Shown: positions 22,494 to 45,122, counted from the stretch's first letter. The stretch: 64,000 nucleotides of DNA from a virus (IMGVR_UViG_3300008107_000028:34195-98194); one strand, 5' to 3'. The notes: generated by a model from the sequence alone, not told the origin. Numbers and translations are program-made.

Positions 22494-22565
22494 TACAAAC
22501 TATGTACCAAAAAGATTAGATTGACATTATGACATTAAATTTTAAAATAATATGACATAATGTCT
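22494..22565 (-). promoter_or_regulatory. Putative sigma54-like promoter with TGACA repeat operator/enhancer sites upstream of hsp20
   Basis: Minus strand TTGGTACATAGTTTGTA (GG-N10-GT); TGACA-N3-TGACA at 22522-22534 and TGACA-N3-TGTCT at 22553-22565. Confidence 0.5.
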
Positions 22566-22625
22566 ATCATTTGTTTTTAAGAATGATTTTTATTATATTT
22601 GTTTAATAACTATAAAATTATAAAC

Positions 22626-24644
22626 ATGGCGGTAGATTTTTTTGAAGAAGGACAAACAACCAACCCTAAAAAAATTAGAAAAGGGTCAAATACACCTATT
22701 CTTGATAATTTTTCAAGAGATTTAACTCGACTTGCAGAGGAAGGTAAAATCGATCCTGTTGTCGGGAGAGATAAAGAAGTAAAAAGAATTGCTCAAATTC
22801 TTTCACGCAAGAAAAAAAATAATGCAGTGATAGTTGGAGATGCGGGTGTTGGTAAATCTGCACTTGTAGAAAAACTTGCATTGATGATTAATAAAGGAGA
22901 TTGTCCGAGTAATTTAATTGATAAAAGGATCGTATCATTAGATTTAACCTCTTTAGTTGCCGGTACAAAATATAGAGGTCAATTTGAAGAAAGAATAAAA
23001 GCAATTTTAAATGAATTACAAGAAGTTACAAACGTTGTAGTTTTCATCGATGAACTACATACTATGGTAGGTGCAGGAAACGCAAGTGGATCAATGGATG
23101 CGGCCAATATTTTGAAACCCGCACTTGCAAGGGGCGAATTACAATGTATTGGTGCGACAACGTTTGATGAATATAAAAAACATTTAGAAAAGGATTCGGC
23201 ACTTGTTAGAAGATTTCAGAAAATTATTTTAAAAGAACCCAATCAATTAGAAACAATCAACATTTTAAATAATTTAATCGGTTCGTATCAAGATTTTCAT
23301 AAAGTAAAATACGAAGACGGTGTCATTGAAACTATTGTTAAGTTATGTGCTCGATATATTACTGATCGACAATTTCCTGATAAGGCAATCGATGTCTTAG
23401 ATGAACTCGGTTCAGAAAAAAGAGTCTCGTCTAAAGTACCTGATATTATTGAAAAATTAAAAAAAGATTCGGAGGAATTAAAAGAAAAAAAATTTCAAGT
23501 TGTTAAATCTCAAAATTACGAACAAGCGGCAAAATTACGAGATGAAGAAAGAAAAATATTACTAAGACTTGATGAAGAAAAACAAAAATGGTTAGATAAA
23601 TTAAAAGATAATAAAACACCAATAACCATTGATGATGTTTATGAAATTATTTCAAACATAACAGGTGTACCCATTTCTAAATTAGATAAAAAAGAGACTG
23701 ATAAGTTACTTAAAATGGAAGATATTCTCTCATCTAAAGTAATTGGTCAAACGGAAGCAATTTTAACAATATCTAAAGCGGTTAGAAGGAATCGTGTTGG
23801 TATTAAGGACGCAAATAAACCAATTGGATCATTCATTTTCTTAGGATCCACGGGTGTTGGTAAAACATTCTTAGCCAAATCAATTGCGGAATTACTTTTT
23901 GGTGATCCTGAAAAAATTATTCGTGTTGACATGAGTGAATTCATGGAAAAACATAATGTGTCTAAATTAATTGGTTCTCCTCCAGGATATGTTGGTTATG
24001 ATGAGGGTGGTCAATTAACAGAAAAAATTAAGAATAATCCATTCTCTGTTGTATTGTTTGATGAAATTGAAAAGGCACATAAAGACGTTTTTAATATCCT
24101 ACTTCAAATTTTAGATGAAGGACATTTAACTGATTCATTCGGAAGAAAGGTAAACTTTACTAACACAATTATTATCATGACATCAAATGTTGGTGCAAAA
24201 AAAGTTTCGGATTTTGGTGGAGGTGTTGGATTCGCAACATCGTCGTCTGAACAACAAAAATATGAGGTAAAAAAATCAATTATACAAAAGGCTTTAAAAC
24301 AACAATTCAATCCTGAATTTTTAAATCGAATTGATGATATTATTTTATTCAATTCATTAAATGAAGAATCACTTAAAAAAATTATTGAGATCGAGATTGA
24401 AAAATTATCAAAAAGACTAAAAGAAAAAAACTATACTGTAAATTTTGATAAATCTGTGATCAATAAAATATACGAACTAAACTCACAAGAAGAGTATGGT
24501 GCAAGACCCTTGAAAAGATTGATTCAAAATTTATGTGAAGATTTTTTAAGTGAGGAAATTTTAAGGGGAAACATAGTAGAAAATGATCCAATAACCTTGA
24601 AATATAAAACGGATAAATTAGTAATTCACAAAAAAAGTTTATAA
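22626..24644 (+). CDS. clpC: ClpC-type AAA+ unfoldase lacking the N-terminal Clp-repeat domain
   Basis: Two AAA modules ([16 protein letters not shown]), UVR-type M-domain '[12 protein letters not shown]', ClpP-docking 'VGF' loop. Confidence 0.88.
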
Positions 24645-25014: not shown

Positions 25015-25070
25015 AACTAATGAACCGGATTTTTCCGGTTCATTTTTCTATTTATATTAAATTAGTGAAT

Positions 25071-25490
25071 ATGGAATACATCGGAGAATTAATTTTATTA
25101 AGAGGACTACCGGGTAGCGGCAAAAGTACTCTTGGTGAAATTATATTATATACACGTGGATCGGATAACACAAATGCGGTATTGTCTGCTGATGATTATT
25201 TTATTGACGTTAATGGTAATTATAATTTTGATTACACAAAATTAAAAGAGGCTCACAATGATTGTGTATTAAGATGTGTTGAAAGAATGAAAAATCAAAT
25301 CGTTAAAATTGTTGTGGCTAACACATTTACACAAGAATGGGAAATGGAAAAGTATTTTGAAATTGCAGAAAGATACAAATATAGAGTTCATAGTTTAATT
25401 GTTGAAAATAGACATGGTAGTGAAAATATACATAGTGTACCAAAAGATAAACTTCAACAAATGAAGGAGAGATTTCAAATCAAACTCTAA
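25071..25490 (+). CDS. Polynucleotide kinase-like P-loop protein (AAA_33)
   Basis: 'LLRGLPGSGKST', 'SADDYF', 'VANTF', 'HSVP'. Confidence 0.85.
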   Translation: MEYIGELILLRGLPGSGKSTLGEIILYTRGSDNTNAVLSADDYFIDVNGNYNFDYTKLKEAHNDCVLRCVERMKNQIVKIVVANTFTQEWEMEKYFEIAERYKYRVHSLIVENRHGSENIHSVPKDKLQQMKERFQIKL

Positions 25491-25550
25491 TGAGTAAGTT
25501 TTTCGTTTCCTACGCATATCCGAAAAAAGAAAAAAAGAAAAGATTATTTA

Positions 25551-26615
25551 GTGTTATCAATATTAGAAAAATATTATCAAAATGGTTTGGTTTTAAAACA
25601 AACTCATCCGACTCTTGATCTATCTATATGGAACTATTCCCCAAAAGTTCAGTACGAAAAATTATGGGATGATGTCACTAAAATTTGTAGAGGTTTAGTT
25701 ACAAACTCCGAAGGAAAAATAATCGCAAGACCATTTAAAAAATTTTTTAATTACGAAGAACATTCTGTGAATGAAATTCCAAATGAATCATTTGAAGTTT
25801 TCGAAAAAATGGACGGTTCATTAGGAGTTGTTTTTTATTATCACGGAGAATGGCACATGGCAACAAGAGGATCATTTATCTCCAATCAATCTCTTGTTGG
25901 TCTCAAAATGTTAAAAGAACTTTCGATTTTAAAAAATTATCCATCAACGGGTTTAAATCGTAATTGGACTTATCTATTTGAAATAATATATAAAGAAAAC
26001 AGAATCGTTTGTGATTACGATTTTGAAGGTTTGGTTTTACTTGGTGCATATGAAACAGAATCAGGTAATGAAATTGATTTTGATATATTAAAACATAAAG
26101 TAGGTCTTTTTAATGATGTTAGAATAGTTAGAAAATATAATGGTATTAATGATTTCAAAAAATTAAAAGAAACGATTGCCGATGATCGAGAAGGTTATGT
26201 TATTCGTTTTAAAAACGGATTTAGAATAAAAATAAAAGGTGAAGAATATATTCGTTTACATAGAATATTAACAAATATATCCAGTAGAGATATTTGGGAA
26301 CACCTTAAAGATGGAAAATCCTTAGATGAAATTCTTGATAAGGTTCCCGATGAATTTTATAATTGGGTTAAAGAAACTAAAAATAACTTAAATGATGAAT
26401 TCACAAAAATTGAAAATGAATATAAATGGATTTACAAGATTATTACAAGATCATCAAATTCAACAGAAAGAAAAGTTTTTGCAGAATATGCATTGAAATA
26501 TAAACATTCATCTATATTATTTTCAATGTATAATAAAAAAGATTATAAAAAAATAATTTGGAAACTATTATATCCAAGTTACACAAAACCATTTAAAAAT
26601 GATAAAGAAAATTAA
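25551..26615 (+). CDS. RNA ligase (T4 Rnl1-like)
   Basis: 'CRGLV', 'RPFKKFFN', motif I 'EKMDGSLG', 'EGYVIR', 'KIKG.EY'. Confidence 0.9.
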   Translation: MLSILEKYYQNGLVLKQTHPTLDLSIWNYSPKVQYEKLWDDVTKICRGLVTNSEGKIIARPFKKFFNYEEHSVNEIPNESFEVFEKMDGSLGVVFYYHGEWHMATRGSFISNQSLVGLKMLKELSILKNYPSTGLNRNWTYLFEIIYKENRIVCDYDFEGLVLLGAYETESGNEIDFDILKHKVGLFNDVRIVRKYNGINDFKKLKETIADDREGYVIRFKNGFRIKIKGEEYIRLHRILTNISSRDIWEHLKDGKSLDEILDKVPDEFYNWVKETKNNLNDEFTKIENEYKWIYKIITRSSNSTERKVFAEYALKYKHSSILFSMYNKKDYKKIIWKLLYPSYTKPFKNDKEN

Positions 26616-27075
26616 CGTTTACTTAGATGATGTAAGAACACCAACTGAAGGTGATTGGGAAGTTGTTAGAAATTATGATGAATTTGTTTCAATAATAAAT
26701 TTACGTGGGTTAGAAAATATCGAAACGATATCCTTAGATCATGACTTGGGTGAAGGGGCAATGATTGAATATTATACAAATGTAAAAAATAATTTTACCT
26801 TAGATTATAATAATATACAAGAAAAAACTGGATACGATTGTTGTAAATTTTTGATTGATTTAAGTATGAATAAAAATATCCTACTGCCTCAAGTCTATGT
26901 TCATTCCGCAAACCCGATCGGTAGTGCAAATATGATGGGTTATATTAATAATTATTTAATGAATTGTCGACTTCCCCAAACATGTGTTAGAGTACAAATT
27001 CCACATACAATTGATGAAAGTCACCAAATTCCACCTGAGGCCAGAAAGGCAAAATGGGATAGAAGTAAAAAATAA
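26599..27075 (+). CDS. Cyclic-phosphate processing receiver-domain protein
   Basis: 'VYLDDVR', 'ISLDHDLG', 'TGYD', 'VHSANP.G' motifs; adjacent to the RNA ligase. Confidence 0.8.
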   Translation: MIKKINVYLDDVRTPTEGDWEVVRNYDEFVSIINLRGLENIETISLDHDLGEGAMIEYYTNVKNNFTLDYNNIQEKTGYDCCKFLIDLSMNKNILLPQVYVHSANPIGSANMMGYINNYLMNCRLPQTCVRVQIPHTIDESHQIPPEARKAKWDRSKK

Positions 27076-27131
27076 TTTTTTTATTTTATAAATTTTTATA
27101 TTTTTGTTTTACACTTATTAAACTAAAAAAC

Positions 27132-27455
27132 ATGCCATCTAAACAAAACGAATTTTACAAAAGATTAGTCTTTAAAGGAAAATACAACGAGTTCAAAGAC
27201 TTTTATGATGAGAACAAAGAAATGATTTATAAATCCATAATTGAAGTTTTTCAAGGGTTTAAAAATACAAGAAAAAAAAGTTTATCGTTGTATATATCGG
27301 CTAAAATTAAAGGATTGGAATGGGATACTGAATTCAACTTTAAAAAAGATGAATGTATTATTTTAAAAAGAGATCTAATGCCATATTTTGAACAAACGGA
27401 AGATTATGAAACTTGTTCTGAAATAATTTCTTTACATAAAGACTTGACAAATTAA
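27132..27455 (+). CDS. Hypothetical protein with a C-terminal UVR-like motif
   Basis: 'FEQTEDYETCSEI'. Confidence 0.55.
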   Translation: MPSKQNEFYKRLVFKGKYNEFKDFYDENKEMIYKSIIEVFQGFKNTRKKSLSLYISAKIKGLEWDTEFNFKKDECIILKRDLMPYFEQTEDYETCSEIISLHKDLTN

Positions 27456-27474
27456 AATATTTTGTCTATAATTT
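27444..27474 (+). promoter_or_regulatory. Promoter TTGACA-N17-TATAAT driving small RNA 'C'
   Basis: TTGACA at 27444-27449, 17-nt spacer, TATAAT at 27467-27472. Confidence 0.7.
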
Positions 27475-27477
27475 AAT

Positions 27478-27542
27478 TGTATCGAGAGGTACATTTATTG
27501 TTTTTTGTCAACCCCCCGATGTTTTTACATCGGGGTTTTTTT
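27478..27542 (+). ncRNA. Putative trans-acting antisense small RNA 'C' targeting the leader of the 27541-37239 operon
   Basis: Promoter, ~30-nt unstructured segment and terminator (27510-27542); 27481-27509 is 27/29 identical to 37285-37313. Confidence 0.7.
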
Positions 27543-28887
27543 ATAGTATCATTCTACTTCCAATTAAAACATTATGTAAGATTGGTGAATTCGGCATAGT
27601 GTTTACACTTAATTTATAATTTAAACTTAAACCAAATCTTTTACTTAGTTTATAATCTATGGATGATCCCAATAAAAAACCAAGATTTCTATTAACCGAA
27701 GACTTTTTTGTTTGAGTATTGTAACTAATTGGTGATGTCATAATAAAAACCTGAGGTGACAATGTAATTTTTTTACTGTAAGAATATGGTTTTGTCCAAA
27801 ATCCAACCGCAGATGTTACAACATTATAATCGAATCCTGTGTTTGTTGTATTTCTCAAAACTAAATTTATTGCACCTAAATTATAACCATATGTTCCATA
27901 CTTAGGATTTGGTCTTACGTAAGTATAAGATAATAAGTTCATAAAATTACCATCCAAATAGGCAAATGTAGTTCCATATGAATGTATAGCCTTTAGTGTT
28001 CCTTCTTCAAATTCCATTTTTGTGTATCCTCCACTTAGTGCGAATTGTTTTAAATTACTCCATATCATGGCATTTGCTGAAAATGTTTCATCTCCAGCCA
28101 TACTCGCTCTACTCCAACCCAATCCAACAATCATGTTTAATCTTTTGTCAGGATTTTGTGCTGCGGTCAAATCGGAGGCAAACATCATTGGATTTAAATT
28201 TCCATTTTTCTTTTTCTCCTCCTTTTTTTCTTCTTTTTTTTCTTCTTTTTTTTCTTCTTTTTTTTCTTCTTTAGATTCTTCTTTTTTAGATTCCTCTTTC
28301 TTTTCCTCACTTTTACTTTCTGATTTAGATTCCTCTTTTGATTCAGATTTAGTTTCTGATTTTGACTCAGATTTAGTTTCTGTTTTGGTTTCGGTTTTAC
28401 TTTCCGAAGAAGATGATGACGAATTGCTACTTTGTGAGGAAGATGATGTGTTGTTACTTGTTGATGGTGGTGTTGAAGAAGATGTAGATACGGATGATGA
28501 TGCCGCTGATGATGCAGAACTACTTGCAGCAGAGCTTGCCGATGAACTCGCTGCGGTACTTGCTGCTGTTGATGCAGCTTGAGACGCCGCTTGAGATACT
28601 GTATTTTGAACGGTTTGTTGTACTACTTGACTTGTTGGGCAGGCCATTGAGGAATATTGTGCAAAAACTGTATTCAACCATGTTTGAACTGTACCATTCG
28701 CAACCTCAATCGGAGTAAAAGTTCTGACTTGATTATAAAAAGAAACTACCGCATTACCATTTACATACGTCGTTGTCACCGTTTTAACTTCTCCTGTACA
28801 CTTATCTACATATGTTTGTGTATAAGTTTGTCCATTTACTTTATAAACGAACAATAATATTAATATACTTATTAAACATTTTTTCAT
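27541..28887 (-). CDS. Exported protein with a low-complexity S/E/K linker and a C-terminal outer-membrane beta-barrel
   Basis: Signal peptide; S/A-rich then EEKK repeats; alternating amphipathic strands in the C-terminal ~220 aa. Confidence 0.65.
   Translation of the reverse strand: MKKCLISILILLFVYKVNGQTYTQTYVDKCTGEVKTVTTTYVNGNAVVSFYNQVRTFTPIEVANGTVQTWLNTVFAQYSSMACPTSQVVQQTVQNTVSQAASQAASTAASTAASSSASSAASSSASSAASSSVSTSSSTPPSTSNNTSSSSQSSNSSSSSSESKTETKTETKSESKSETKSESKEESKSESKSEEKKEESKKEESKEEKKEEKKEEKKEEKKEEKKKNGNLNPMMFASDLTAAQNPDKRLNMIVGLGWSRASMAGDETFSANAMIWSNLKQFALSGGYTKMEFEEGTLKAIHSYGTTFAYLDGNFMNLLSYTYVRPNPKYGTYGYNLGAINLVLRNTTNTGFDYNVVTSAVGFWTKPYSYSKKITLSPQVFIMTSPISYNTQTKKSSVNRNLGFLLGSSIDYKLSKRFGLSLNYKLSVNTMPNSPILHNVLIGSRMIL
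28204..28600 (-). repeat. Low-complexity coding repeats (EEKK, SESK, ASSS)
   Basis: Tandem 12-nt TTTTTCTTCTTT-type units. Confidence 0.8.
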
Positions 28888-28890
28888 TTA

Positions 28891-29733
28891 TTAAAAATTC
28901 AAACCAAATCCAAATTGAGTATAATTTCTAATAGGATCAGTATCTATTTTAAGTGTCAAATTTTTTACATCTCTCATAATACCAACCTTTGCGGTAACAA
29001 AGTTTGAATTATATTTTGGAAAAGTGATTTCACCAATCGCATCTTTCCCTCTCCATCTAACAATTTCATTTCCAAATCCAATCATTGCATGAAATCCAGT
29101 TCTTTTGAATCTTTTACCACCACCAAGGTAGATTGTTTTTTCTTTAATTAAATCATTAATTAATGGAAAGTCAACTTGTGTAATTCTACCATATGGAAAA
29201 AAAGTTGATCGGTCTGGTTGATATGTCGAAACAAAATCTACCATAAAATAGTTTTTTCCGCCAACGGCAAATGATGCACCAATTTGGTTATTAGTTGTTT
29301 TATGTAAACCAAAATTTATTATTGGTTTTTTACCTCTAATAGTATCTCTCTTACCATTTTCGTAAACATAAATTCTTTGTGGTTGACGATACCCCCAATC
29401 ATTCCAATACCAAGACGGTTGCCAAAAGTTCCAACCAAATCCAGGTGCTCCCCACATATCCCATCTATTCCACCCCCATCCAAATCCACCAACCCACGGG
29501 TCTCTTACAATGATATTAGAACCTGGTCTTGTTCTTACAGGTCTATCATACCCTCTTGATGGTGGTTGACTTCTCCAATCACTAACATCATTTCTTTGTG
29601 GAATTGATTGTTGTACGGATGGAGTACTTCTTTGTGGTGATGATTGTTGTTGAGGTGGGTTACTTCTCCAAGATGAAACTTGTGAAAATGTTATCACAGG
29701 AATTAACAATAATAATATTAATGACTTCTTCAT
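28891..29733 (-). CDS. Putative outer-membrane beta-barrel protein with a W/G-rich N-region
   Basis: Signal peptide; ends in YTQFGFGLNF (terminal Phe beta-signal). Confidence 0.65.
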   Translation of the reverse strand: MKKSLILLLLIPVITFSQVSSWRSNPPQQQSSPQRSTPSVQQSIPQRNDVSDWRSQPPSRGYDRPVRTRPGSNIIVRDPWVGGFGWGWNRWDMWGAPGFGWNFWQPSWYWNDWGYRQPQRIYVYENGKRDTIRGKKPIINFGLHKTTNNQIGASFAVGGKNYFMVDFVSTYQPDRSTFFPYGRITQVDFPLINDLIKEKTIYLGGGKRFKRTGFHAMIGFGNEIVRWRGKDAIGEITFPKYNSNFVTAKVGIMRDVKNLTLKIDTDPIRNYTQFGFGLNF

Positions 29734-29818
29734 AATTAAAGTGTTTTATAACATATAAATATTAAAAAGGGGGTTATAAACCCCCCCTTATTATATTTTA
29801 ATTAATATGTTGTTTTTG

Positions 29819-30547
29819 TTATTTTGGGAAAACACCCTTTTTTACTAATTTATCTAATATGTTTGCACATGCAACATCTAATGCTTTTTTTGTTGCAATT
29901 GATATTGTTGATTGATTGAACTTAATTGGATCAACAGATGCGTCTGAAACCAAAGTTAATTCTCTTGTAGTTTTCGATTCACCTAACCCTGAAGCGGCAA
30001 TTATAGCACCCGTTTCGGCATTCGTAAATCTAACTTGAAGACCCAAACGAGTCACCATATTATCTTTAATACCATTTTTTAAATTGATGGTTTCATCTTC
30101 GGATACTGAGTAATCATAAACTTCAATCTCAACAAAATAATTTGCCAATTTAATTTTTCCTCTACCTTCTATTTTATTTTCAGATATACCGGCATTTGAT
30201 GCTTTGAACTGTTGAACCATTCTGTTTTTTATTTCCGTTTTATCTTCGGTAAATTCAAAACGATTAAGGTTATCCAAATATTCTAATACAATATTTGCAA
30301 CACCCAAACCAACTCTTTTCTCTTTTAATTCAGGGTACATATCATATACCTCTTCACCAATACCACATTTCAATATTTGAATATTCTTTTTGGGACCTTC
30401 GTAGTCTAAAAATGCTGAAATATCTTTTTTCTTTTCAAATTCTGCTTTATATTCTTCTGTTTTTGTAACACCTATCGTTTGTGCATTAAGTGAGTTGCTT
30501 AAAACAAAAATTAATAACAAACTTAAAACTAAAACTAATTTTTTCAT
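29819..30547 (-). CDS. CsgG/HfaB-family (curli assembly/secretion channel-like) protein
   Basis: Signal peptide; 'GLGVANIVLEYL..LNRF', 'LANYFVEIEVYDYS', 'LGLQVRFTNAETGAIIAASGLG'. Confidence 0.7.
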   Translation of the reverse strand: MKKLVLVLSLLLIFVLSNSLNAQTIGVTKTEEYKAEFEKKKDISAFLDYEGPKKNIQILKCGIGEEVYDMYPELKEKRVGLGVANIVLEYLDNLNRFEFTEDKTEIKNRMVQQFKASNAGISENKIEGRGKIKLANYFVEIEVYDYSVSEDETINLKNGIKDNMVTRLGLQVRFTNAETGAIIAASGLGESKTTRELTLVSDASVDPIKFNQSTISIATKKALDVACANILDKLVKKGVFPK

Positions 30548-30599
30548 ATTCTTTATTTTATAAATATAATAAAAGAGGGAGTCAAACTCCCTCTTTTAA

Positions 30600-30857
30600 T
30601 TAACCTTCGACTTCTTCATCTTTTTTATTGTGTTTGTTGTTTATATACTTGTCCACCGAGGCAATACCGAAGGCACCAAGTGTAATAACCAAGAAACCAT
30701 CAAAGATAAATTCGTTAATAAGTAATTCTTTACCTAACCAACCTGTTACGAGGTCAACTACTAAAGCTAATACCATACAAACGAATGATGCAAAACCGAC
30801 TACCGATTTTTCGTTGATTGTGTTGTTGTCGTTAAATAATTCTTTAAAAAATCCCAT
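30600..30857 (-). CDS. Small 2-TM membrane protein (holin-like)
   Basis: Two hydrophobic segments and a charged C-terminus. Confidence 0.6.
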   Translation of the reverse strand: MGFFKELFNDNNTINEKSVVGFASFVCMVLALVVDLVTGWLGKELLINEFIFDGFLVITLGAFGIASVDKYINNKHNKKDEEVEG

Positions 30858-30892
30858 AATTTGTGTTTTGTGTTTTGTGTTTTGTTTATGAT

Positions 30893-31561
30893 TTAACCCT
30901 CTATATGGTCATCAGGGTCAGGATCCTTAATTTTTCCACACTTCAGACATTCTAAATCACCGTCACCATCTGAGTCACCCCAAATATGTTCACATTGTCT
31001 ATGCGCGAAATACATATCAATTTTACCATCACCATCAAAGTCAATACCATCCATTTGTCCATCACCATCTTCATCCACTTCAACGCCTGTTCTACCTGTC
31101 TTTGGAGTTGTTACGGCATCGGTAATTTGTGTTTCAACTACAGTTTCTTTTGGTTTATTAACTTCAATCATATTAATTTCATGTGCATGATTTGCAGCTT
31201 GAACAAATGCATCGGGTATTAATGGTGTAACAGGTTTATCACTTTCTTTCATATCATTTGTGTTTGAAAGAGAAACCCCATCCTCTTCGTCCATTTTTTG
31301 AACTAACATCTTATCCTTATCAGTATCACTAAACCAATAGTCAATGATTTTACCATAGGAACCGATGAAAGCACCTAATAAAAGAAGTAATAATTCTTTC
31401 CACTCACCACCAATCTCATTCTTACCTATAATAGCTGCGAAAATACCCCCCATTATTAACATAAACCCCCCAAGAACGATAGCTGTGATAAACCATCTTC
31501 TTTTCATCATAGAGTTTAATAATTCTTTAAAACCTGTTGGTTGTTGATTGTTTTCCATCAT
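30893..31561 (-). CDS. 2-TM membrane protein with DxDGDG calcium-binding-like repeats and a C/H zinc-finger-like tail
   Basis: DEDGDGQMDGIDFDGDGKID; CEH.WGDSDGDGDLECLKCG. Confidence 0.6.
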   Translation of the reverse strand: MMENNQQPTGFKELLNSMMKRRWFITAIVLGGFMLIMGGIFAAIIGKNEIGGEWKELLLLLLGAFIGSYGKIIDYWFSDTDKDKMLVQKMDEEDGVSLSNTNDMKESDKPVTPLIPDAFVQAANHAHEINMIEVNKPKETVVETQITDAVTTPKTGRTGVEVDEDGDGQMDGIDFDGDGKIDMYFAHRQCEHIWGDSDGDGDLECLKCGKIKDPDPDDHIEG

Positions 31562-31573
31562 TATATAAAAATT

Positions 31574-31894
31574 TTACCACTCAGCTGGTTTTTCTTTAAA
31601 CTCATCACCGTCTTTTTTCTTAACAGGTGCGGGTTTTTCTTTTATTGTTTCTTTTTCTTTGATTACAACCGTTTTACCGCCGGCACCTCCAGCCGCTTGT
31701 TGCTGTTGATTTGAGTTTGTAATATTAATTACTGGTGCCGCTTGCTGTACTGGAGTAGCTTCTTTGTCTCCACCTCCAAATAATGTGGTGACCCATACAC
31801 CACCTGCGGTTACTACGGTACCGGCTACTCCGACAATGGTCTTCTTTAATCCTGACCATGTACCATCATTTGTGCTTTCTACTTCTTCTGACAT
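31574..31894 (-). CDS. Small membrane-anchored hypothetical protein
   Basis: One hydrophobic segment, Q/A-rich linker. Confidence 0.6.
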   Translation of the reverse strand: MSEEVESTNDGTWSGLKKTIVGVAGTVVTAGGVWVTTLFGGGDKEATPVQQAAPVINITNSNQQQQAAGGAGGKTVVIKEKETIKEKPAPVKKKDGDEFKEKPAEW

Positions 31895-31911
31895 AATTTG
31901 TGTTTTTGTGT

Positions 31912-32283
31912 TTATAGTTTATTAAAATCGGTTATTCCTAATTCTTTATCGTTTTGATCATATAATCCTATTCTATATGCGGAGGACGGTAAAGCATTGG
32001 TATATACTTTAAGTATATTGTCTCCAACCTTTACGTTCACAGTTTCTTTAGAAATCACTTTGTTACCAATATTAAAAATCTTTATAGTTACTGTTTGGGC
32101 GACGTCACTTTTTACGTTCATTGCCACTTCTGATGTAACAAAAGGAGTCTCTAATTTTATACCAACCTTGGAGGTTATTTCTAAAGCGTTTGGTGTTGGT
32201 GGTAGAGGAGGTTCAACGAATGGAGTTTTTCTACATCCGAGAATAAATACGGCCGCGATTAATGTAATAATTAATTTTTTCAT
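31912..32283 (-). CDS. Lipoprotein with an Ig-like, T9SS C-terminal-domain-like fold
   Basis: Lipobox FILGC-RK; 'VTIKIFNIGNKVI...GDN...LPSSAY.I' resembles the Por-secretion CTD/FlgD-Ig pattern. Confidence 0.6.
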   Translation of the reverse strand: MKKLIITLIAAVFILGCRKTPFVEPPLPPTPNALEITSKVGIKLETPFVTSEVAMNVKSDVAQTVTIKIFNIGNKVISKETVNVKVGDNILKVYTNALPSSAYRIGLYDQNDKELGITDFNKL

Positions 32284-32293
32284 TGTTTTTTGT

Positions 32294-32641
32294 TTAGTTT
32301 AATATTAATAACGTTCTACCTATTTGGACATTATTAACATCCTCTAAGGATAAATATAAATATCTAATAGGCAACGATTTTGTATATATATTCAAAGTAT
32401 TTTGTCCGATTTTTCCGGCAATTCTTTCTCTTGTAATTACCTGTTGTCCGACAGAATCAAAAAGAGTCATCGTGTGTATTCCTTCTGTCTTTAAATCAAA
32501 ATTTAATTCATCTCCATTAGATACCTTGAGTTCTTTTACAGAAAACACGTCCACTTTTCCAATAGAAGAAATTGGCTCGGGTAAATTTGTTTTTCTACAT
32601 CCTGATATAAAAATCAAAAAACATAATAATACAATTCTCAT
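32294..32641 (-). CDS. Lipoprotein, paralog of 31912-32283
   Basis: Lipobox ISGC-RK; shared 'G.N.L..YT..LP...Y.L.L.D.N..' pattern. Confidence 0.65.
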   Translation of the reverse strand: MRIVLLCFLIFISGCRKTNLPEPISSIGKVDVFSVKELKVSNGDELNFDLKTEGIHTMTLFDSVGQQVITRERIAGKIGQNTLNIYTKSLPIRYLYLSLEDVNNVQIGRTLLILN

Positions 32642-34950
32642 TCTATTCTAATTTTAATGCTACCGCCCATTTTGGTAACCGCCTCATTTGTTGCGATTGA
32701 CACCAACCCGAGCGAATTTGTTATTTTTTTATTCAACTTAAAAGATAATTTGTATTCTGTGGTATTATCTAAAATCCCCCCACTCATATTCAACGACCCT
32801 AAATTTATATTATCACCTCTATCATTACCAAAGTTTATCGGTGATCCGGCTGTTTTAAATTGTGTTCCACTATATTTTAAAATTGAGTTATCGTAATTGA
32901 TTCTAAATTGTGTTCCAACAATATCATTTGTATTTGGATTAAACTTTACTATGACAACCAAACTATCACCGATAATTTCAGATATTACATAAGCACTTGG
33001 TTCGGAAGAATTTTTTGATATACTGTTTGACATAGAAGTAATTGAATTTATCTGATTGGCAACACCATTCGTAACAGTTTGAGATGGTGAATGAGACATA
33101 TTCACATCTCCTTTCCAAAAGGCGTTCAATGTGAAGGCGTTTAACAACTGAGTTGAGCTCAGTGTCAAGTTACTATAACTGTCTGAAGTTGCATTTGGAT
33201 ATGACATCCAATTACTTTTTGTTACCGCATCGTAATCAGATTTTGGTAACAATTTAATAAAAGATTGTAAATTATTTGTTGTTAATAATGATTCTTGACC
33301 TAATAAATGTCTTAATAATTTAAAACAATCTGCTTCATTAAATTGGCCATTTTCATCTACATCTGCGTTCATAAATTGTATACCTGAAGTGAAATAGTTA
33401 CTTGTATTTCCGAATATTCCACCGTCTGCAAATTCTTTAAAAGCAAGATATACATCCGATACCGTCACTATTCTATCTAACATTGAAGTTATAGTATCTG
33501 CTATTGGATTTTGGAATTGTACCATTTGCGGTTTATACACCATTTGATTTGAAAAACTTATTGTTGATGTGAAAGCATAATCAGTATTCCAACCATTTAC
33601 ATTTCGGATATTCGAATTGTATATTGATGTTCCATCAGTTACTTTTGTAAGTGGTGATGGAACTCTATATTGTGCCCACGCAGCATCGCTACTTAAATAT
33701 GTCACAGGCCCATCATATGTATCTAATATTTTTGCACGCGATATTGTTGATGGAACTGTATTGCCAAATGTTCTCATATCAATTAAAAGCCGACTATCAC
33801 CATTTAACCAACTTGCATTTGGATTGGTATACGAATATTCGACTTGACCAGAATTTATGTTTGCGGATATTCCACCAACAACTTTAATTGTATCTGAAAA
33901 AGAACTCATATCCACTCTACCAATATTATTTAATGATGTATAATTTTGTGAGAATGGTGTCCAAACATTATTAGATTGTGAATGTGTTCTTAATGCGAAT
34001 CTACTTGCCGTAAGATTGTTAAAATTAAAAGTATATTGAACTCTAAACACATCTCCATTTGAATGTATTACACTATTAGAATAAAATTCAGTAAATGTTT
34101 GGTCATCAGGATTTGTCCATGTTCCATACTCAATTACATAAGGATTATTCCAATTGTTTGATAAATCGTTCCAACAAGCTGCACCATTCCATTTTGCTAC
34201 TGCATAGTTTTCACTACCATTACTACCATTTGGTTCACCACCACACCAGTTGTTATATACACCTACTATGTTTCCGTTTAGTTGTCCATTTGCGGTTTTC
34301 ATTACTGTCCCCTTTTCAGGCCCAGCATCAATTACCCATCTTCCATCCACAACTTCATCCGTTGCTGCAAACCATACATTCGTTGCAGGAACATTTACTC
34401 TAATAAATTCTTCTTCAGATGTGGAGGTTATTGTTACCAAATATCCCGACTGTCCTTTGAATGTACTTAATAAAGACCTTGCTCTTGCGTTTGTATATGT
34501 AGTTCTATCAGCGGTTGCGGTTAGTGGTTTATAAAAGTGTCCATTAACTCCGTTGTAAAAAAATCCAATTGGATTGATAGTTGCCGCAACTGATAATTGA
34601 ACATTACCAACTACTGAACCTGTGTTTACTTTCAAAGATGCTAATGCTGTATTAACATTGGCGATTGTTCCCGTTACAACTAAACGAGTTTTATTACCAT
34701 TTAAAGTAAATCCACTTGCTGCTGTTAAACCTGTTGTTGTGTTAAGATAAAATGTAGTACCAGATGGTGGATTGATTAAACTAATTGAAGCAAGTAATGT
34801 TTCAGTTGCGTTAAATCCACTTAATACAAATCCACTGGCATCCTGTCCAATGGTGTTTATGGCAAACGATTTGGGTTCAGGTGCCGTTACCGACTGCCCA
34901 AACCCAAAAGTTGTGATTATAGATAATAGAATTACAAATAATAATCTCAT
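32638..34950 (-). CDS. Exported adhesin-like protein with C-type lectin, dockerin-like and cohesin-like domains
   Basis: Signal peptide; CTLD motifs 'NGHFY', 'YLVTITS.EE', 'YNNWCGGEPN', 'WNDL'; 'ADVDENGQFNEADCFKLLRHLLG'; C-terminal 'GTQFRINYDNSILKY'. Confidence 0.75.
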   Translation of the reverse strand: MRLLFVILLSIITTFGFGQSVTAPEPKSFAINTIGQDASGFVLSGFNATETLLASISLINPPSGTTFYLNTTTGLTAASGFTLNGNKTRLVVTGTIANVNTALASLKVNTGSVVGNVQLSVAATINPIGFFYNGVNGHFYKPLTATADRTTYTNARARSLLSTFKGQSGYLVTITSTSEEEFIRVNVPATNVWFAATDEVVDGRWVIDAGPEKGTVMKTANGQLNGNIVGVYNNWCGGEPNGSNGSENYAVAKWNGAACWNDLSNNWNNPYVIEYGTWTNPDDQTFTEFYSNSVIHSNGDVFRVQYTFNFNNLTASRFALRTHSQSNNVWTPFSQNYTSLNNIGRVDMSSFSDTIKVVGGISANINSGQVEYSYTNPNASWLNGDSRLLIDMRTFGNTVPSTISRAKILDTYDGPVTYLSSDAAWAQYRVPSPLTKVTDGTSIYNSNIRNVNGWNTDYAFTSTISFSNQMVYKPQMVQFQNPIADTITSMLDRIVTVSDVYLAFKEFADGGIFGNTSNYFTSGIQFMNADVDENGQFNEADCFKLLRHLLGQESLLTTNNLQSFIKLLPKSDYDAVTKSNWMSYPNATSDSYSNLTLSSTQLLNAFTLNAFWKGDVNMSHSPSQTVTNGVANQINSITSMSNSISKNSSEPSAYVISEIIGDSLVVIVKFNPNTNDIVGTQFRINYDNSILKYSGTQFKTAGSPINFGNDRGDNINLGSLNMSGGILDNTTEYKLSFKLNKKITNSLGLVSIATNEAVTKMGGSIKIRIE

Positions 34951-36596
34951 TATTCAACTACGAGTTCTATTTTGTTACCTAAAGCATCAACAGCATCGGC
35001 TAAAACGAAATAGAATAATCCCGCAGTATTCGCTAATGATACTTTTGGTGTAAAGATTAGTTTATATGGTGTTCCTGTTTTAATTCTGGCAGTCTTCAAT
35101 TGGTCAATAGAACCAAATGTTAATCTACCATTATCATGTGTTGAGAAATTTGTTATTGTTGATCCCGCATCAAATATTACATTTTCTAAAGTAAGTTTAG
35201 TTGAGTCATAATTCATAATAACTTCTAAACCTGCTAAACCTTCTTTAGTTAATCCACCTGTTAATATAACTTTACCATTTTCTAATTTAGATACAACTGT
35301 TAATTTAGCTGTCTCCAAAGTTTTATCTTGATAACCAACTGACATAGTTTGTATACCACTTTCGGTTGAACCATTTTTAGAATTTGTAAACACACCACTT
35401 GATATACTTGAAGCAATTGCCGAAGTTGACGATGAATGTGACCAATCTAAGTCACCACCCCAAGCAAATACAGCATTTACTGTTTGAATTGGTGTTGTGA
35501 TGTATACTCTATTTCTCGTTGTTCCATCTAACCAACTTTGATTTAATAAACCACTATACCATCTTACACTTGTTGAAGTTGAAGTTGGTATTAAAGCACT
35601 TGTTGAAACATTTATACCCATAACATGAGCAAAAAGAAAATATGCATCACTTTCATTAAAGTTATTATCATTAAGTGTAATATTTCCAATTCTTTTTTCT
35701 AAAACAGGATATTGAAAATATGTAGCATTACCACTTATATCTGTTTGTGTATGTCCTAAAAATGCTTTATACGCATCGGTTACTGTTATAACATTATTCA
35801 TCCACGATTTTTGAAAAGCGGCACCAACGAATACACCTAAACTATCACCAACTCTTACACCTGAAGTAAAAATTGCTTCTCCACTGGCATCAAGTGGTCT
35901 TGTTTGTAATGGTTGTTGTGACCAATCAATATCACCACTACCATCGTTCTTTAATCTCATTAATTGAACTGAGTGATCTGTAATTGTATATCCTTGTGGA
36001 AATAAAACTTTAACTTTAAACTGAGAAGTATTACCAATAACGCCTGTTAAAGATAAATCGGTAACATCTGTATACACTGGTGATATATTTACTGAGGCAT
36101 CGTTAATTGCGTACGACATATCAATTTTATGAATGTCAGTATATTCACCCAAATCTTTTACCACAAATTTTTGAGTTGCAATATCACCGTTTATTGATGC
36201 ATCTGTTCTTTGAACAGTTAATTGACCCACATTCCAATCATTATTAATTGTGTAAGACCAAGGTGTTGCCAAATATTGTGCATATAATGAAGTGTCGGGA
36301 ACATTTGATGAAGGAGTAAATTTGTAGTTCGCCCATTCAGTAAAATATGTTTGGGTTGAAGAACCTTGACTGAAAAAAGTACTATTAGGTACCATAGTCA
36401 AAGCCTTGTTATTATACTGATATCTCATCCAAAAATAACGAGGTGTTGTCGTCCCTCTTTCAACTGTATATTTTACAGTAATTGTGTCACCTACCCTATA
36501 TCCAGAAGTTGGTGTTACAGTTTGGTTTACTCTTAATTGAGAAAAAGTAGTCGTAGTAATTGACAAAAATAAAAATAAATTAATTAGTTTTTTCAT
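34950..36596 (-). CDS. Exported protein with cohesin-like and degenerate dockerin-like domains
   Basis: Signal peptide; 'VGDTITV..MRYQYNNKAL', 'ITVTDAYKAF..FNESDAY', 'W.GDL..SHS', 'AGLEVIMNYDSTKL'; C-terminal half parallels 32638-34950. Confidence 0.65.
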   Translation of the reverse strand: MKKLINLFLFLSITTTTFSQLRVNQTVTPTSGYRVGDTITVKYTVERGTTTPRYFWMRYQYNNKALTMVPNSTFFSQGSSTQTYFTEWANYKFTPSSNVPDTSLYAQYLATPWSYTINNDWNVGQLTVQRTDASINGDIATQKFVVKDLGEYTDIHKIDMSYAINDASVNISPVYTDVTDLSLTGVIGNTSQFKVKVLFPQGYTITDHSVQLMRLKNDGSGDIDWSQQPLQTRPLDASGEAIFTSGVRVGDSLGVFVGAAFQKSWMNNVITVTDAYKAFLGHTQTDISGNATYFQYPVLEKRIGNITLNDNNFNESDAYFLFAHVMGINVSTSALIPTSTSTSVRWYSGLLNQSWLDGTTRNRVYITTPIQTVNAVFAWGGDLDWSHSSSTSAIASSISSGVFTNSKNGSTESGIQTMSVGYQDKTLETAKLTVVSKLENGKVILTGGLTKEGLAGLEVIMNYDSTKLTLENVIFDAGSTITNFSTHDNGRLTFGSIDQLKTARIKTGTPYKLIFTPKVSLANTAGLFYFVLADAVDALGNKIELVVE

Positions 36597-37239
36597 CTGT
36601 TAATAGTTTAGTTACAAGTTTATCGGCCGTTTTTTTCAAAGCGTTAGAAAGTGAAGTTTGATTAAACTTACCTCCTTGATCAACAATTAACGTTGACATA
36701 GAAATTTCAGAAGAAGATTCTTCTACTAAGACTTCTTTTTCTTTTTTACCATCTTTATAAAGAATACCCTTCATTCTAATAACGACCTCTTCTTCATTTT
36801 TGTGAAATACTGATACGTTTTTCTTTGTTGTTAAAACGTCAAAATAAACAATTTCTACTTTTAGTTTATTTGGTGCGTTAGGTGACAGTTCATATTCTTT
36901 ATCTTGAAGGTACTCTTCTAATATATTCTTGACACCAAATTCTAAATTTCTATTACCCGCTAATTTTCCTATTTTAACTTTGTTTTCAACACTTTCAACC
37001 CATACGTGTTGGTCTTCTTCGTAATATATATTTGATGGGTCATTTTTGAATCTTCCATCAAACTTTACCGTAAAAGAATTTACTAAATTCCTAATAACAT
37101 CGTCTTGTCCTGTTGCTTCTAAATAAACAAAATAAATTTGAGTAAGTAGTGCTAATGACACGAACGCCACAAAAAGGTATATCACCATGAATACCATTTT
37201 GTCTAACATTAAATTAGTGATTGATTTAATTTTTTGCAT
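36580..37239 (-). CDS. Membrane-anchored, CsgG-related protein (first gene of the operon)
   Basis: N-terminal TM; shares 'GV.NI..EYL' and 'KFNQ...S.A.KK' with 29819-30547. Confidence 0.55.
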   Translation of the reverse strand: MQKIKSITNLMLDKMVFMVIYLFVAFVSLALLTQIYFVYLEATGQDDVIRNLVNSFTVKFDGRFKNDPSNIYYEEDQHVWVESVENKVKIGKLAGNRNLEFGVKNILEEYLQDKEYELSPNAPNKLKVEIVYFDVLTTKKNVSVFHKNEEEVVIRMKGILYKDGKKEKEVLVEESSSEISMSTLIVDQGGKFNQTSLSNALKKTADKLVTKLLTDEKTN

Positions 37240-37324
37240 AAAAATCCTGTTTTAAGTGTCTCAGGATTTTTTGGGCATCAAAAAATCGAGAGATTCATTT
37301 ATTGTTTTTTGTCTTCAATAAATA
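37240..37324 (-). promoter_or_regulatory. Operon leader: TATTTATT promoter motif, uORF1 MNLSIF* (37298-37278), coupled uORF2 MPKKS* (37278-37261) and a 10-bp hairpin abutting the ATG
   Basis: Read from sequence: TGATG overlap; AAAAATCCTG/CAGGATTTTT arms at 37271-37262 and 37249-37240. Confidence 0.65.
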
Positions 37325-37328
37325 TCTC

Positions 37329-37700
37329 TCAGTAAAGTAGTTGCCGGTATTTTGCCAAAATTATTTTGCCGAGCGAGATTCGTGTTTCAACCTGAGGTAT
37401 AGAAAATTCAACTATTTCACGTATTTCATCTATATATATGTTATCCTCACCATACAATTTAGGATTTTCTGAAATATATACATATCTATGTTTGTCAAAT
37501 ATTTTTTTTATATTATTATAATCCTCTTTAAATGAATTTAACTCTTTTATCATACATTCCATGTGCAATAAATGAGGAGATAATTTTTTTTGAATAAAGG
37601 AATCATCAACTTTTTTTAGATATGATAATAAAACATATTGTTTATGTTCAAAATCTATCGGAGATTCTATGTACCATTGCAACGTAATTAAATCTTCCAT
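37329..37700 (-). CDS. Hypothetical protein
   Basis: 123 aa; 'W.....IDFEHKQYVLLSYL' resembles a conserved Bacteroidota hypothetical family. Confidence 0.6.
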   Translation of the reverse strand: MEDLITLQWYIESPIDFEHKQYVLLSYLKKVDDSFIQKKLSPHLLHMECMIKELNSFKEDYNNIKKIFDKHRYVYISENPKLYGEDNIYIDEIREIVEFSIPQVETRISLGKIILAKYRQLLY

Positions 37701-37754
37701 AAAATTTCCTTTTTATATAAATATTTCTTATATTTTCAATATAAATTGATTTTT

Positions 37755-38534
37755 ATGACTTTTAAACACCTTACTGACTTAGAAATCCAACAAATGACAT
37801 TTGATTGGAGATATAGAGGTTTCACAATTCTTGAGTTACTAACAGAAGAAGAATGTGACGAAATAAATGATGAACTCGAACGTCTTAGAGAAAAACGTAT
37901 GGGTACAATCACTGAAGACGGTAAACCATGGGGAGAGTGGGATCCATTTGCTTATCCACATAAGTTATCAGATAAACTTGAAAAACTTTTTGCTCACCCT
38001 AAATTAATTGAAGCGTGTGAGTTTTTAATGGAAGGTGAATTAATGGGAATGCAAAGCTGGGCATATTTCAAACCCCCTGGTCAATTAGGTAGAGATCAGC
38101 ATCAAAACGCGTTTTACACAGGTTGTAAACATAATGAGATTATCAACACCGCATTAGCATTAGATAATCACGACGCCGCAAATGGTGCCGTTTGGAATTA
38201 CGAAGGTTCCCACAGATTACCAACATTACCAATTGAAGTAGATGAAGAAAGAACAAAAACAAACCCAACATTTTGGAGAAATGAAAGAGGTAAACCTTGT
38301 GTGATGCCAGAAGGACATGATTTTAGAAAAGTTGAAGGTGTTTTGAAAAAAGGTCAATGTGTGTTGTTACATTCACACTGTGTACATGGTTCTGAACCCA
38401 ACAATTCAAATAGAATGAGAAGAAACTTCTTGGGTGGATTCTTGAAAAAGGGTGCGTACTATAATCAAGGTTCACACATGAAAAGAGAACCAATTGATAT
38501 GTATGAATTGAGAAAAAAACATTGGGGAGAATAA
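37755..38534 (+). CDS. Phytanoyl-CoA dioxygenase (PhyH)-family Fe(II)/2-oxoglutarate oxygenase
   Basis: 'YFKPPG...HQN..Y', 'ALD...NGA....GSH', 'HGSEPNNSNRMRR'; the usual HxD is HQN here. Confidence 0.85.
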   Translation: MTFKHLTDLEIQQMTFDWRYRGFTILELLTEEECDEINDELERLREKRMGTITEDGKPWGEWDPFAYPHKLSDKLEKLFAHPKLIEACEFLMEGELMGMQSWAYFKPPGQLGRDQHQNAFYTGCKHNEIINTALALDNHDAANGAVWNYEGSHRLPTLPIEVDEERTKTNPTFWRNERGKPCVMPEGHDFRKVEGVLKKGQCVLLHSHCVHGSEPNNSNRMRRNFLGGFLKKGAYYNQGSHMKREPIDMYELRKKHWGE

Positions 38535-39346: not shown

Positions 39347-39433
39347 GCCTTGGTGGTGGAACTGGTAGACACGCAGGACTTAAAATCCTGTGAACCGAAA
39401 AAGTTCGTGCGGGTTCGATTCCCGCCTGAGGCA
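39347..39433 (+). tRNA. tRNA-Leu(TAA)
   Basis: Cloverleaf with anticodon arm CAGGA-CTTAAAA-TCCTG, long variable arm, GGTTCGATTCC. Confidence 0.95.
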
Positions 39434-39471
39434 CAACACTATCGTTCTTTGAAATAAAGGAGAAATAAACT

Positions 39472-39717
39472 ATGGATATACTATCATTTATTTTAGGAAT
39501 GTCCGTTGTGGTGGTTATCGCAGTTGCGGTAGTCGCTGTAATGGCCTTTGTTAGGGTAAAAAAACATAACAAAGATATTGAAGATATACGTCAATGTATG
39601 TCAAGAGATTATGAATATCAAAATAGAGAGCGTGATAATATTGTTCAAGACATATACAGAACATTAGATTCACGACTTGATAAACTTGAAAGTAGAATAA
39701 TAAGCCGTAAGGTATAA
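39472..39717 (+). CDS. Small protein with N-terminal TM and coiled coil, inside the tRNA cluster, with a strong SD
   Basis: AAAGGAG 9 nt before ATG; flanked by a 19-bp inverted repeat (39435-39454 / 39733-39751). Confidence 0.75.
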   Translation: MDILSFILGMSVVVVIAVAVVAVMAFVRVKKHNKDIEDIRQCMSRDYEYQNRERDNIVQDIYRTLDSRLDKLESRIISRKV

Positions 39718-39755
39718 CAATTAAATAAAAACTTTCAAAGACGATAGTGTTAAAT

Positions 39756-39827
39756 GGTCCCATAGTTAAACGGATATAACTACAGATTTCTAATCTGTTA
39801 TTCGTGGTTCGATTCCACGTGGGACTA
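39756..39827 (+). tRNA. tRNA-Arg(TCT)
   Basis: Anticodon arm ACAGA-TTTCTAA-TCTGT; acceptor GGTCCCA/TGGGACT. Confidence 0.95.
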
Positions 39828-39875
39828 CAATCGTTAATTTAAACGATAATTCAAATTATCGTTTAATCTTATGAT

Positions 39876-39947
39876 GTCTCCTTAGCTCAGCGGTAGAGCA
39901 TCTCGCTGTTAACGAGAGGGTCCGAGGTTCGAAACCTCGAGGGGACG
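39876..39947 (+). tRNA. tRNA-Asn(GTT)
   Basis: Anticodon arm TCTCG-CTGTTAA-CGAGA; discriminator G. Confidence 0.95.
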
Positions 39948-39951
39948 CATA

Positions 39952-40025
39952 GGACCCTTAGCTCAGTTGGTTAGAGCAAATGACTCATAATCATTAGGTC
40001 CACGGTTCGAGCCCGTGAGGGTCCA
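39952..40025 (+). tRNA. tRNA with CAT anticodon, likely tRNA-Ile2 (lysidine type)
   Basis: AATGA-CTCATAA-TCATT; acceptor GGACCCT has the C4-G69/C5-G68 TilS determinants; no initiator features. Confidence 0.85.
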
Positions 40026-40082
40026 CAAAGGACTTTAATGAACGAAGTACAAGTTTGGAGTAGGTTAGTCCCACCTACAATC

Positions 40083-40154
40083 GCTCAGTTCGTCTAATGG
40101 TTAGGACGTGTCCCTTTCACGGACAAAATACGGGTTCGACTCCCGTACCGAGTA
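40083..40154 (+). tRNA. tRNA-Glu(TTC)
   Basis: TGTCC-CTTTCAC-GGACA; one A-C mismatch in the acceptor stem. Confidence 0.9.
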
Positions 40155-40168
40155 CTATAAAAATTTTT

Positions 40169-44716: not shown

Positions 44717-45122
44717 GGGGGTGCTTGGATTTGACGGGCGTTGATATGGTAAATGGGCACGTAGTCGGATGTCATCTACGACTTAAATCTATGGTGATAA
44801 AAATTAAACGGCAACGTTTACAACAACATGGAAGTATCAGGTCTTCTTGCAACTTCTAAAGTGGCTGCCTAATTAGGTCCCCACTAACGGGTCGATGGAC
44901 ACATAACCTTGGAACAGAAGTCCCTACGGTGTGATACCACCAAAAGAGTGTCAGGGAGTTGTTTTCGGTTCAATCCTATTTAATAGGAACCGACCACAGT
45001 TGTGAGTTCTGATGGAAAAATAAGAACCCTCTATTTGTCAGTTGAGAACTAACTGAATAAACGTGTAGTCCATTTATGATATGGCGGTTCGGACAAGGGT
45101 TCGACTCCCTTCACCTCCACCA
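44717..45122 (+). ncRNA. ssrA: tmRNA
   Basis: 5' GGGGGTG / 3' CACCTCC-A-CCA with G3.U70; GATTTGAC D-loop analog; T-arm GGTTCGACTCC; tag ORF at 44810-44872 GNVYNNMEVSGLLATSKVAA*. Confidence 0.93.

Follow-up and report, generated by a model that had tools for sequence, protein, structure and literature searches.

The antisense genes of hok/sok-mok and CopA/tap-repA overlap their targets (that is, they are cis-encoded) and depend on a conserved leader open reading frame (ORF). The c4 antisense RNA of phages P1 and P7 controls a downstream gene via an upstream reading frame, and is processed from the transcript that contains its targets, at a site shortly before them, within the immunity region of a temperate phage. 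In E. coli, IstR-1 reportedly occludes the standby site of tisB, and small RNAs (sRNAs) of the DapZ and MicL type are bacterial, chaperone-dependent and have short seeds. Here we describe a candidate sRNA gene in a 64,000-nucleotide stretch of viral DNA (the window, bases 34195-98194 of the 98,194-base virus record IMGVR_UViG_3300008107_000028), which lies at one end of a block of minus-strand genes and is complementary to the 5' end of the mRNA that begins at the other end. Our data indicate that 27444-27542 (+) is probably the gene for a trans-encoded antisense sRNA of ~64 nucleotides (nt) that represses this distant phage mRNA at its 5' end. By sequence comparison, a trans-encoded antisense sRNA and its target are a well-supported pair in uncultured T4-like jumbo phages.

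The promoter, sRNA body, terminator, repeat and duplex described in an earlier reading of this DNA (the sequence-only reading) were all recovered at the positions listed in Table 1. The sRNA body and the mRNA 5' end are copies of a 29-mer that are identical at 27 of 29 positions and lie on the same strand; none of 100 shuffles gave any match, and the whole record contains only these two copies. Paired with the leader, the sRNA body would form a duplex of 28 pairs and 1 mismatch (-36.5 kcal/mol), while shuffled bodies reach -10.5 +/- 2.7 kcal/mol and 0/300 attain the observed energy. The target is also the best trans partner of the sRNA in the window, at -37.8 kcal/mol versus -27.4 for the next (6394 scanning windows, mean -11.0, standard deviation 3.0).

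The sRNA promoter is the sole 12/12 match to TTGACA-17-TATAAT in a 12-kb scan. The looser pattern TTGACW-N16-18-TATAAT occurs once in the 64-kb window, and since at least one match arises in 24 of 100 shuffles it is not rare by chance. The predicted RNA folds at -21.2 kcal/mol (z -3.96) into a 5' hairpin, GUAUC-GAGA-GGUAC (27479-27492), a U-rich single strand of 21 nt, and a 9-bp terminator with U7; its seed is predicted to be open. A covariance model of the unit, described below, matches the window only once (77.4 bits, 27478-27542, plus strand), and Rfam gives no match at E<=1 on either strand over 27000-37800.

To place the locus in context, we collected relatives from IMG/VR: 80 loci related to the 219-aa protein encoded by the first gene of the block, and 80 more via the C-terminal domain of the 448-aa protein encoded by its last gene. 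Both loci could be examined in 18 genomes or contigs. Thirteen contain both elements (the window, G001, G002, G004, G005, G007, G012, G022-G026 and the L057/L160 contig), five contain neither (L023/L111, L054/L116, L035/L123, L034/L151 and L093/L155), and none contains one without the other. In every case the copies share a strand and sit at opposite ends of the block, 9.8 to 17.3 kb apart. Complementarity to the distant mRNA exceeds chance and is conserved in 13/13 genomes with both loci: cognate duplexes have energies of -20.5 to -41.7 kcal/mol, and in each genome 0/300 shuffles reach the observed value. Nine further sRNA-bearing records have no first-gene homolog on their short contigs.

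We found that the pairing partners change together. A 13x13 matrix of duplex energies is block-diagonal, with cross-clade values mostly between -8 and -24, and separates clade A (the window, G023, G001/2/4/26 and G005), clade B (the L057 contig, G025 and G024) and clade C (G022, G012 and G007). When sRNA copies and leaders are aligned, 17 of the 32 columns have at least two different states that copy and leader share within a genome. One could suppose that the distal copy is a functionless, decaying relic of a duplicated first-gene 5' end, carried in the 3' untranslated region and terminator of the upstream gene, and the leader copy does resemble a vestige of an ancestral N-terminal coding region (M-T-K-I-K.., M-A-K-N-N-R.. 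in G005, G012). A neutral copy, however, should drift from its partner, yet the two match at up to 25/25 positions within a genome while orthologous copies diverge to a cross-clade identity of 0.49; nor would it co-occur with the target 13 to 0 and be lost jointly 5 to 0. We find the relic explanation barely credible.

The distal element is conserved beyond its complementarity. A pattern search detected the sRNA unit at 21/80 loci, and a covariance model (R1) built from 23 distinct units, whose E-values are rough, matched at the end of the 448-aa gene in 23/80 loci, as well as seven units outside its building set (L113, L173, L192-L195 and L201). In 23 aligned units, TTGAC and -10 positions 1, 2 and 6 are invariant and the spacing is 17 nt, with free spacer sequence; three further units have TTTACA or TTGAAA as their -35 box. 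The terminator stem carries compensatory changes in 7/8 pairs, and in L098-L100 it needs G-U pairs that form only on the sRNA strand, which is also the only strand with the T-run. As judged from these alignments, the element is conserved as a transcription unit, with the two features expected of a trans-encoded base-pairing sRNA: a promoter of its own, predicted from conservation, and an intrinsic 3' terminator. Homologs of a 107-aa gene lie directly upstream of the unit in 17/19 relatives examined. On the target side, a leader of the form TATTTAT-N2-8-G(A/G)CAA.. is present at 20/80 loci by strict pattern, plus L014.

Two other arrangements were seen among these loci. In L117, L118, L122, L124, L125 and L133, ~270 nt separate the sRNA terminator from the end of the 448-aa homolog, and the space directly after the terminator holds a plus-strand ORF encoding a membrane-type protein of ~70-80 aa; L123, L150 and L178 have this ORF and no sRNA. 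A second leader type, ~110 nt long and without the sRNA target, precedes the first-gene homolog in L032, L036, L041, L045 and L047; it carries a ATATTTAT motif in a hairpin loop (gagtatcca-ATATTTAT-gtttggatactc).

In the window, the target copy begins 4 nt after TATTTAT on the minus strand. The minimum free energy fold of the leader leaves the first ~27 nt unpaired, with a mean unpaired probability, P(unpaired), of 0.88 over the first 25 nt. The real AUG is reached 75 nt further on, within the pre-start hairpin, in surroundings predicted to be closed (mean P(unpaired) of 0.34 from AUG-12 to AUG+3); the target is unpaired and takes no part in this inhibitory hairpin. We also observed that the promoter motif and target together form an imperfect palindrome (window 37288-37330, minus strand: GAGAGATATTTATTG - 11 nt - CAATAAATGAATCTCTC); the sRNA body therefore contains a near-copy of the promoter heptamer, CATTTAT, and in clade B an exact TATTTAT.

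The sequence-only reading had explained this layout by a two-step relay, in which the sRNA blocks initiation at a first upstream ORF (uORF1), which is coupled through TGATG to a second (uORF2) whose ribosomes would melt the hairpin that hides the start. Both uORFs, their TGATG overlap and a 10-bp hairpin ending before the ATG are indeed present in the window leader. An ATG also sits at the foot of the pre-start hairpin in 9/18 leaders, and several of these begin a mini-ORF (ATG-TAG or ATG-TGG-TTC-TGA) extending into the hairpin's 5' arm. The relay is nevertheless not kept in relatives: an ATG within the target is found in 8/18 leaders and replaced by ACG, ATA or AAG in the other 10, L037 and L057 have no ATG uORF at all, and L015 and L081, the leaders closest to that of the window, have no equivalent of uORF2. 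In G005, G007 and G012 there is no leader, the target being the start of the main ORF itself, and no Shine-Dalgarno-like sequence precedes either uORF in the window leader. Thus, of the conservation that the sequence-only reading had proposed to look for, the 29-mer pair is kept and the uORFs are not kept as a pair. We consider the relay unlikely; a hairpin-opening mini-uORF is possible within clade A.

Comparing lineages, we found that the target stays in place as the coding sequence around it changes. In G005, G007 and G012, an ATG located 4 nt after TATTTAT opens a 171-180-aa homolog of the first gene; all three bases of this AUG fall within the duplex in G005, as do the U and G in G007 and G012. 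This sequence also exists in the window and in clades A and B, where it forms a non-coding 5' tail and the N-terminus, a different and longer one, begins 75-94 nt further downstream. That the target is kept while the coding start is replaced argues for selection on the target itself. The G001-type relatives have a pre-start hairpin of different sequence in the same place (e.g. GGUUCUGAG/CUCGGAAC), and an open 5' region with a closed start is predicted in the window, G002 and G004. We dropped the idea that the sRNA acts on the main start region, where its pairing is no better than with shuffles in 9/9 long-leader genomes.

These placements also bear on the sign of the effect. Pairing at the extreme 5' end, which the duplex covers, could make the sRNA a positive regulator that protects the late mRNA from 5'-end-dependent decay or opens its start region, and the sRNA would open a hairpin that contains the 3' part of the target in G001-type leaders. 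In the three near-leaderless genomes, however, pairing must hinder initiation because the AUG, or its U and G, is within the duplex, and in the window the target is already open and outside the inhibitory hairpin. Positive regulation is in our judgment quite improbable.

We therefore favor repression, and propose the following model. Transcription of the sRNA would begin at a canonical -35/-10 promoter embedded in the final codons of the gene before it and stop at the intrinsic terminator. The U-rich single strand and 5' hairpin of this RNA would pair with a stretch of ~29 nt (37313-37285, minus strand) at the very start of an mRNA predicted to begin ~5 nt after TATTTAT and to encode a membrane-anchored protein with an LptE fold, along with the genes behind it. 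Pairing most likely represses this mRNA. In near-leaderless lineages, the likeliest route is direct, with the duplex covering the AUG and first codons and blocking initiation. In the window, the sRNA would cover the A-rich 5' tail, and the likeliest outcomes there are removal of a ribosome standby region, cleavage and decay of the double strand, or both. A 28-bp duplex is a plausible RNase III substrate. By prediction, the window leader is arranged like a closed start served by a ribosome standby site, and standby occlusion has precedent (PMC6690012, PMC5934652).

A number of observations speak against this interpretation or narrow it. The genomes are not independent: some are near-identical, and G002 and G026 carry the same pair, leaving 12 distinct pairs. 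Pairing is weak in some genomes, with G007 (-20.5 kcal/mol, z -3.4) also having indels. The main AUG region is predicted to be open in clade B and in G022 (P(unpaired) of 0.73-0.89), so a sequestered start with standby entry does not fit them. Part of the -35 invariance could be protein constraint on the upstream 107-aa gene, because TTGAC coincides with conserved Leu-Thr codons. Both transcript 5' ends and the early and late labels used below come from motif geometry, and none of the 24 sequencing runs listed is an RNA run containing the stretch; we infer that the RNA is made, as well as its ends, its timing and the sign of its effect. Finally, the few differences between copies are not clearly biased toward G-U-compatible changes, and co-variation alone therefore cannot separate RNA pairing from identity at the DNA level.

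This last point would suit a reading in which the copies are DNA elements marking the ends of a module: a single phage protein could bind both, or recombination or gene conversion could keep them alike as direct repeats. They are direct repeats at both ends of a syntenic block in every genome, and gene conversion would likewise produce concerted evolution. Yet the distal copy always lies in an opposite-strand promoter-to-terminator unit with conserved -35/-10 geometry, and indels of 3 nt between copies are tolerated. The homology spans only 25-35 nt, with its upstream end at the presumed +1 of the mRNA: complementarity begins 4-6 nt after TATTTAT in 13/13 genomes and never reaches the promoter, as would fit copying of transcribed sequence alone. 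Among the joints listed from four DNA runs, no contig is joined across the block at the repeats. We judge a role as DNA elements to be very unlikely, and return to the antisense sRNA.

How much of the block such an sRNA could govern is limited by the block's own signals. The minus strand has terminators at 30598-30570 and 29789-29765, and after each come TATTTAT and, 13-22 nt later, a gene start. With these internal terminators and promoters, the block is not the single 9.7-kb operon that the sequence-only reading had proposed, and the sRNA could directly control at most its first unit. What stands of the proposed silencing of a late operon is a unit running from promoter to terminator whose RNA would be antisense to the start of a distant TATTTAT mRNA and which co-occurs and co-varies with its target. 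Elsewhere in the window, TATTTAT is mostly intergenic, on the strand of the gene and 4-22 nt before its start codon, including at the portal protein and large terminase genes; the motif at 37324-37318 is exceptional in lying 79 nt from the next start. Many genes have TATTTAT 4-6 nt before the ATG (e.g. 13769-15586, 15645-17420, 6311-6781, 49798-52110 and 785-1159), a gap implying, as far as sequence can tell, that a large share of the late-type mRNAs of this phage have little or no leader. Upstream of the plus-strand genes at 22599, 40765 and 52878 there are TTGACW-type promoters. By analogy with T4, the promoter types and motif geometry would mark the host-type promoter as early and TATTTAT as late.

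The sRNA gene is antisense to the 3' flank of the 448-aa gene, and on the minus strand its terminator hairpin is followed by GGTTGAC. With no U-run after the hairpin on that strand, late transcripts of the last gene would continue across the sRNA gene. Such read-through would collide with sRNA transcription and give a perfectly complementary decoy that uses up the sRNA, so that expression of the block's end would switch on its beginning. The result would be a self-resetting timer, in which an early sRNA silences the first late unit until read-through of the block end relieves it; we think this unlikely. If it were true, co-infecting relatives would be set apart by the three co-varying specificity classes much as plasmids are by incompatibility groups.

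Table 1. Positions of the predicted sRNA gene, its target and neighboring features (window coordinates).
Feature	Position	Strand	Basis or remark
107-aa gene, conserved	27132-27455	+	ORF; last codons (..Leu-Thr..) contain the sRNA -35 box
sRNA promoter, sigma-70-type TTGACA-17-TATAAT	27444-27472	+	12/12 consensus match
Predicted sRNA, ~64 nt	27479-27542	+	Fold; 5' end placed from the -10 position
sRNA body complementary to mRNA 5' end	27481-27509	+	Repeat search, duplex energies
Intrinsic terminator hairpin	27514-27535	+	Followed by U-run to 27542
Last gene of minus-strand block, 448 aa	27541-28887	-	ORF; C-terminal domain kept in 80 loci
Two internal terminator-plus-TATTTAT junctions	30598-30560, 29790-29755	-	Split the 9.7-kb block into at least 3 units
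First gene, 219 aa, predicted N-terminal membrane helix and LptE/PelC-like lipoprotein fold	36580-37239	-	AlphaFold 2 (AF2), Foldseek
10-bp pre-start hairpin AAAAAUCCUG / CAGGAUUUUU	Arms 37271-37262 and 37249-37240	-	Covers AGGA, abuts ATG at 37239
uORF2, MPKKS*	37278-37261	-	Shares TGATG with uORF1
uORF1, MNLSIF*	37298-37278	-	Read in sequence
Target, first ~29 nt of presumed mRNA, A-rich unstructured 5' tail	37285-37313	-	Duplex
TATTTAT promoter-like motif of target transcript	37318-37324	-	Motif scan

The AF2 model of the 219-aa first-gene product has a predicted local distance difference test score (pLDDT) of 74. Foldseek matches it to Cj1090c, LptE, PelC and PqiC with E-values of 7e-6 to 5e-4 and modest target-normalised template modeling (TM) scores of 0.4-0.6, and there is a weak Pfam match to Lipoprotein_16 that falls below the cut-off. 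The membrane helix and LptE/PelC/Cj1090c-like fold of the model suggest an envelope protein of a Gram-negative host. A holin identity, which started from the size and topology of the T4 holin, was not supported and was dropped, as the fold search gives LptE/PelC-like lipoproteins instead. No protein of the block, including the 548-aa and 770-aa proteins that follow the first gene, matched PHROGs or Pfam above cut-offs (the only, weak rows being Cohesin, Lectin_C, Lipoprotein_16 and CDC27), and in the Protein Atlas only nameless viral clusters were matched. For the 107-aa protein we likewise abandoned a chaperone role: its AF2 model is confident (pLDDT 87.9) and has no PDB match at E<=0.001, some weak Rai1-like rows were set aside, and its Pfam search was empty.

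Just upstream of the sRNA gene is an RNA-repair-like cluster (25020-27075, plus strand) encoding a polynucleotide-kinase-like ATPase (25020-25490), an Rnl1-type RNA ligase (25551-26615) and a protein with a cREC_REC cyclic-phosphate receiver domain (26599-27075). A Lon-like ATP-dependent protease is encoded at 22599-24644 (+) (phrog_4871, E 2e-243), with a TTGACA-type promoter-like site at 22521-22548 upstream. ARAGORN also predicts five tRNA genes (Leu, Arg, Asn, Met and Glu; 39347-40155, plus strand) and a 406-nt gene resembling transfer-messenger RNA with an unusual tag peptide (44717-45122, plus strand).

The source record has a CheckV completeness of 29%, and related records reach 335,630 bases at 100% completeness. 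The window encodes a gp23-type major head protein (8518-10236), a portal protein (13769-15586) and a large terminase (15645-17420). The head protein shares ~29-42% identity with its nearest cultured relatives, which infect Flavobacterium, Microcystis, Rhodothermus and others (several phyla) and so lend no particular support to Flavobacterium, the test host suggested in the sequence-only reading; blastn of both block ends against 50,697 phage records gave zero matches. Of the 24 sequencing runs listed, the stretch is present in 20 DNA runs from 11 studies. In four DNA runs we found contigs identical to the window across both block ends, and the rows listed for these runs contain no sequence variant at either 29-nt copy. 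The T4-type structural genes, the size of the related records and the freshwater origin of the runs together identify the window as a fragment of an uncultured freshwater jumbo phage with T4-type structural genes.

The sequence-only reading knew of no trans-encoded system of this kind in jumbo phages, and our literature searches on phage-encoded sRNAs and on lytic or jumbo phages agree with it: they returned no comparable case, with supplementary tables outside the search. The accessible part of a 2025 review has no mention of 'lytic phage' or 'phage T4' (PMC12197685), and its Table S1 holds 38 phage sRNAs without a described function, which may include relevant cases. A phiKZ transcriptome study reports one predicted sRNA, unconfirmed by northern blot (PMC8244752). 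Regulatory sRNAs of virulent and jumbo phages are almost unknown, and here a predicted sRNA gene has a single clear late-mRNA target. This makes two questions testable: whether RNA-RNA pairing times or safeguards a late envelope protein in large lytic phages, and in what way pairing at the extreme 5' end affects near-leaderless mRNAs. The three specificity classes would also be natural orthogonal sRNA/target pairs.

Of the systems described, IstR-1/tisB resembles the predicted layout of the window leader: its sRNA targets an open stretch of 5' sequence far ahead of a start that structure closes (PMC6690012). Here, in contrast, the targeted phage mRNA encodes a 219-aa envelope-type protein and not a small toxin and would be bound at its extreme 5' end, the sRNA gene is 9.8-17 kb away, the AUG itself is in the duplex in three lineages, and a closed start is not seen in clade B. 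The small hydrophobic toxin of type I toxin-antitoxin systems has no counterpart at this locus, where the first protein has 219 aa and an LptE-like predicted fold and the uORF peptides are 5-6 aa long. The c4 RNA (immI: icd-ant) is similar as a phage antisense RNA that acts in trans on the phage's own leader. Unlike c4, which is processed from the transcript of its targets, the sRNA described here would start from its own promoter, 9.8 kb from the target and on the opposite strand, and belongs to a phage whose structural genes are T4-type.

Like the antisense RNAs of hok/sok-mok and CopA/tap-repA, the predicted sRNA combines a stem-loop with a single-stranded tail and would act on a leader; its hairpin loop is GAGA or GAGAG-type, and the leader carries a mirror CUCUC loop. 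In contrast to those systems, its gene does not overlap the target (9.8 kb away in the window, 10.8-17.3 kb in relatives), and the uORFs are not conserved. With 3'-end sRNAs of the DapZ and MicL type it shares a promoter in the last codons of the upstream gene and a terminator that would also serve that gene's mRNA, but here the complementarity extends over 25-30 nt and is to a single phage target. Judged by its sequence features, the system works like a trans-encoded antisense sRNA and is outside the cis-encoded leader-ORF, type I toxin-antitoxin and P1 c4 types.

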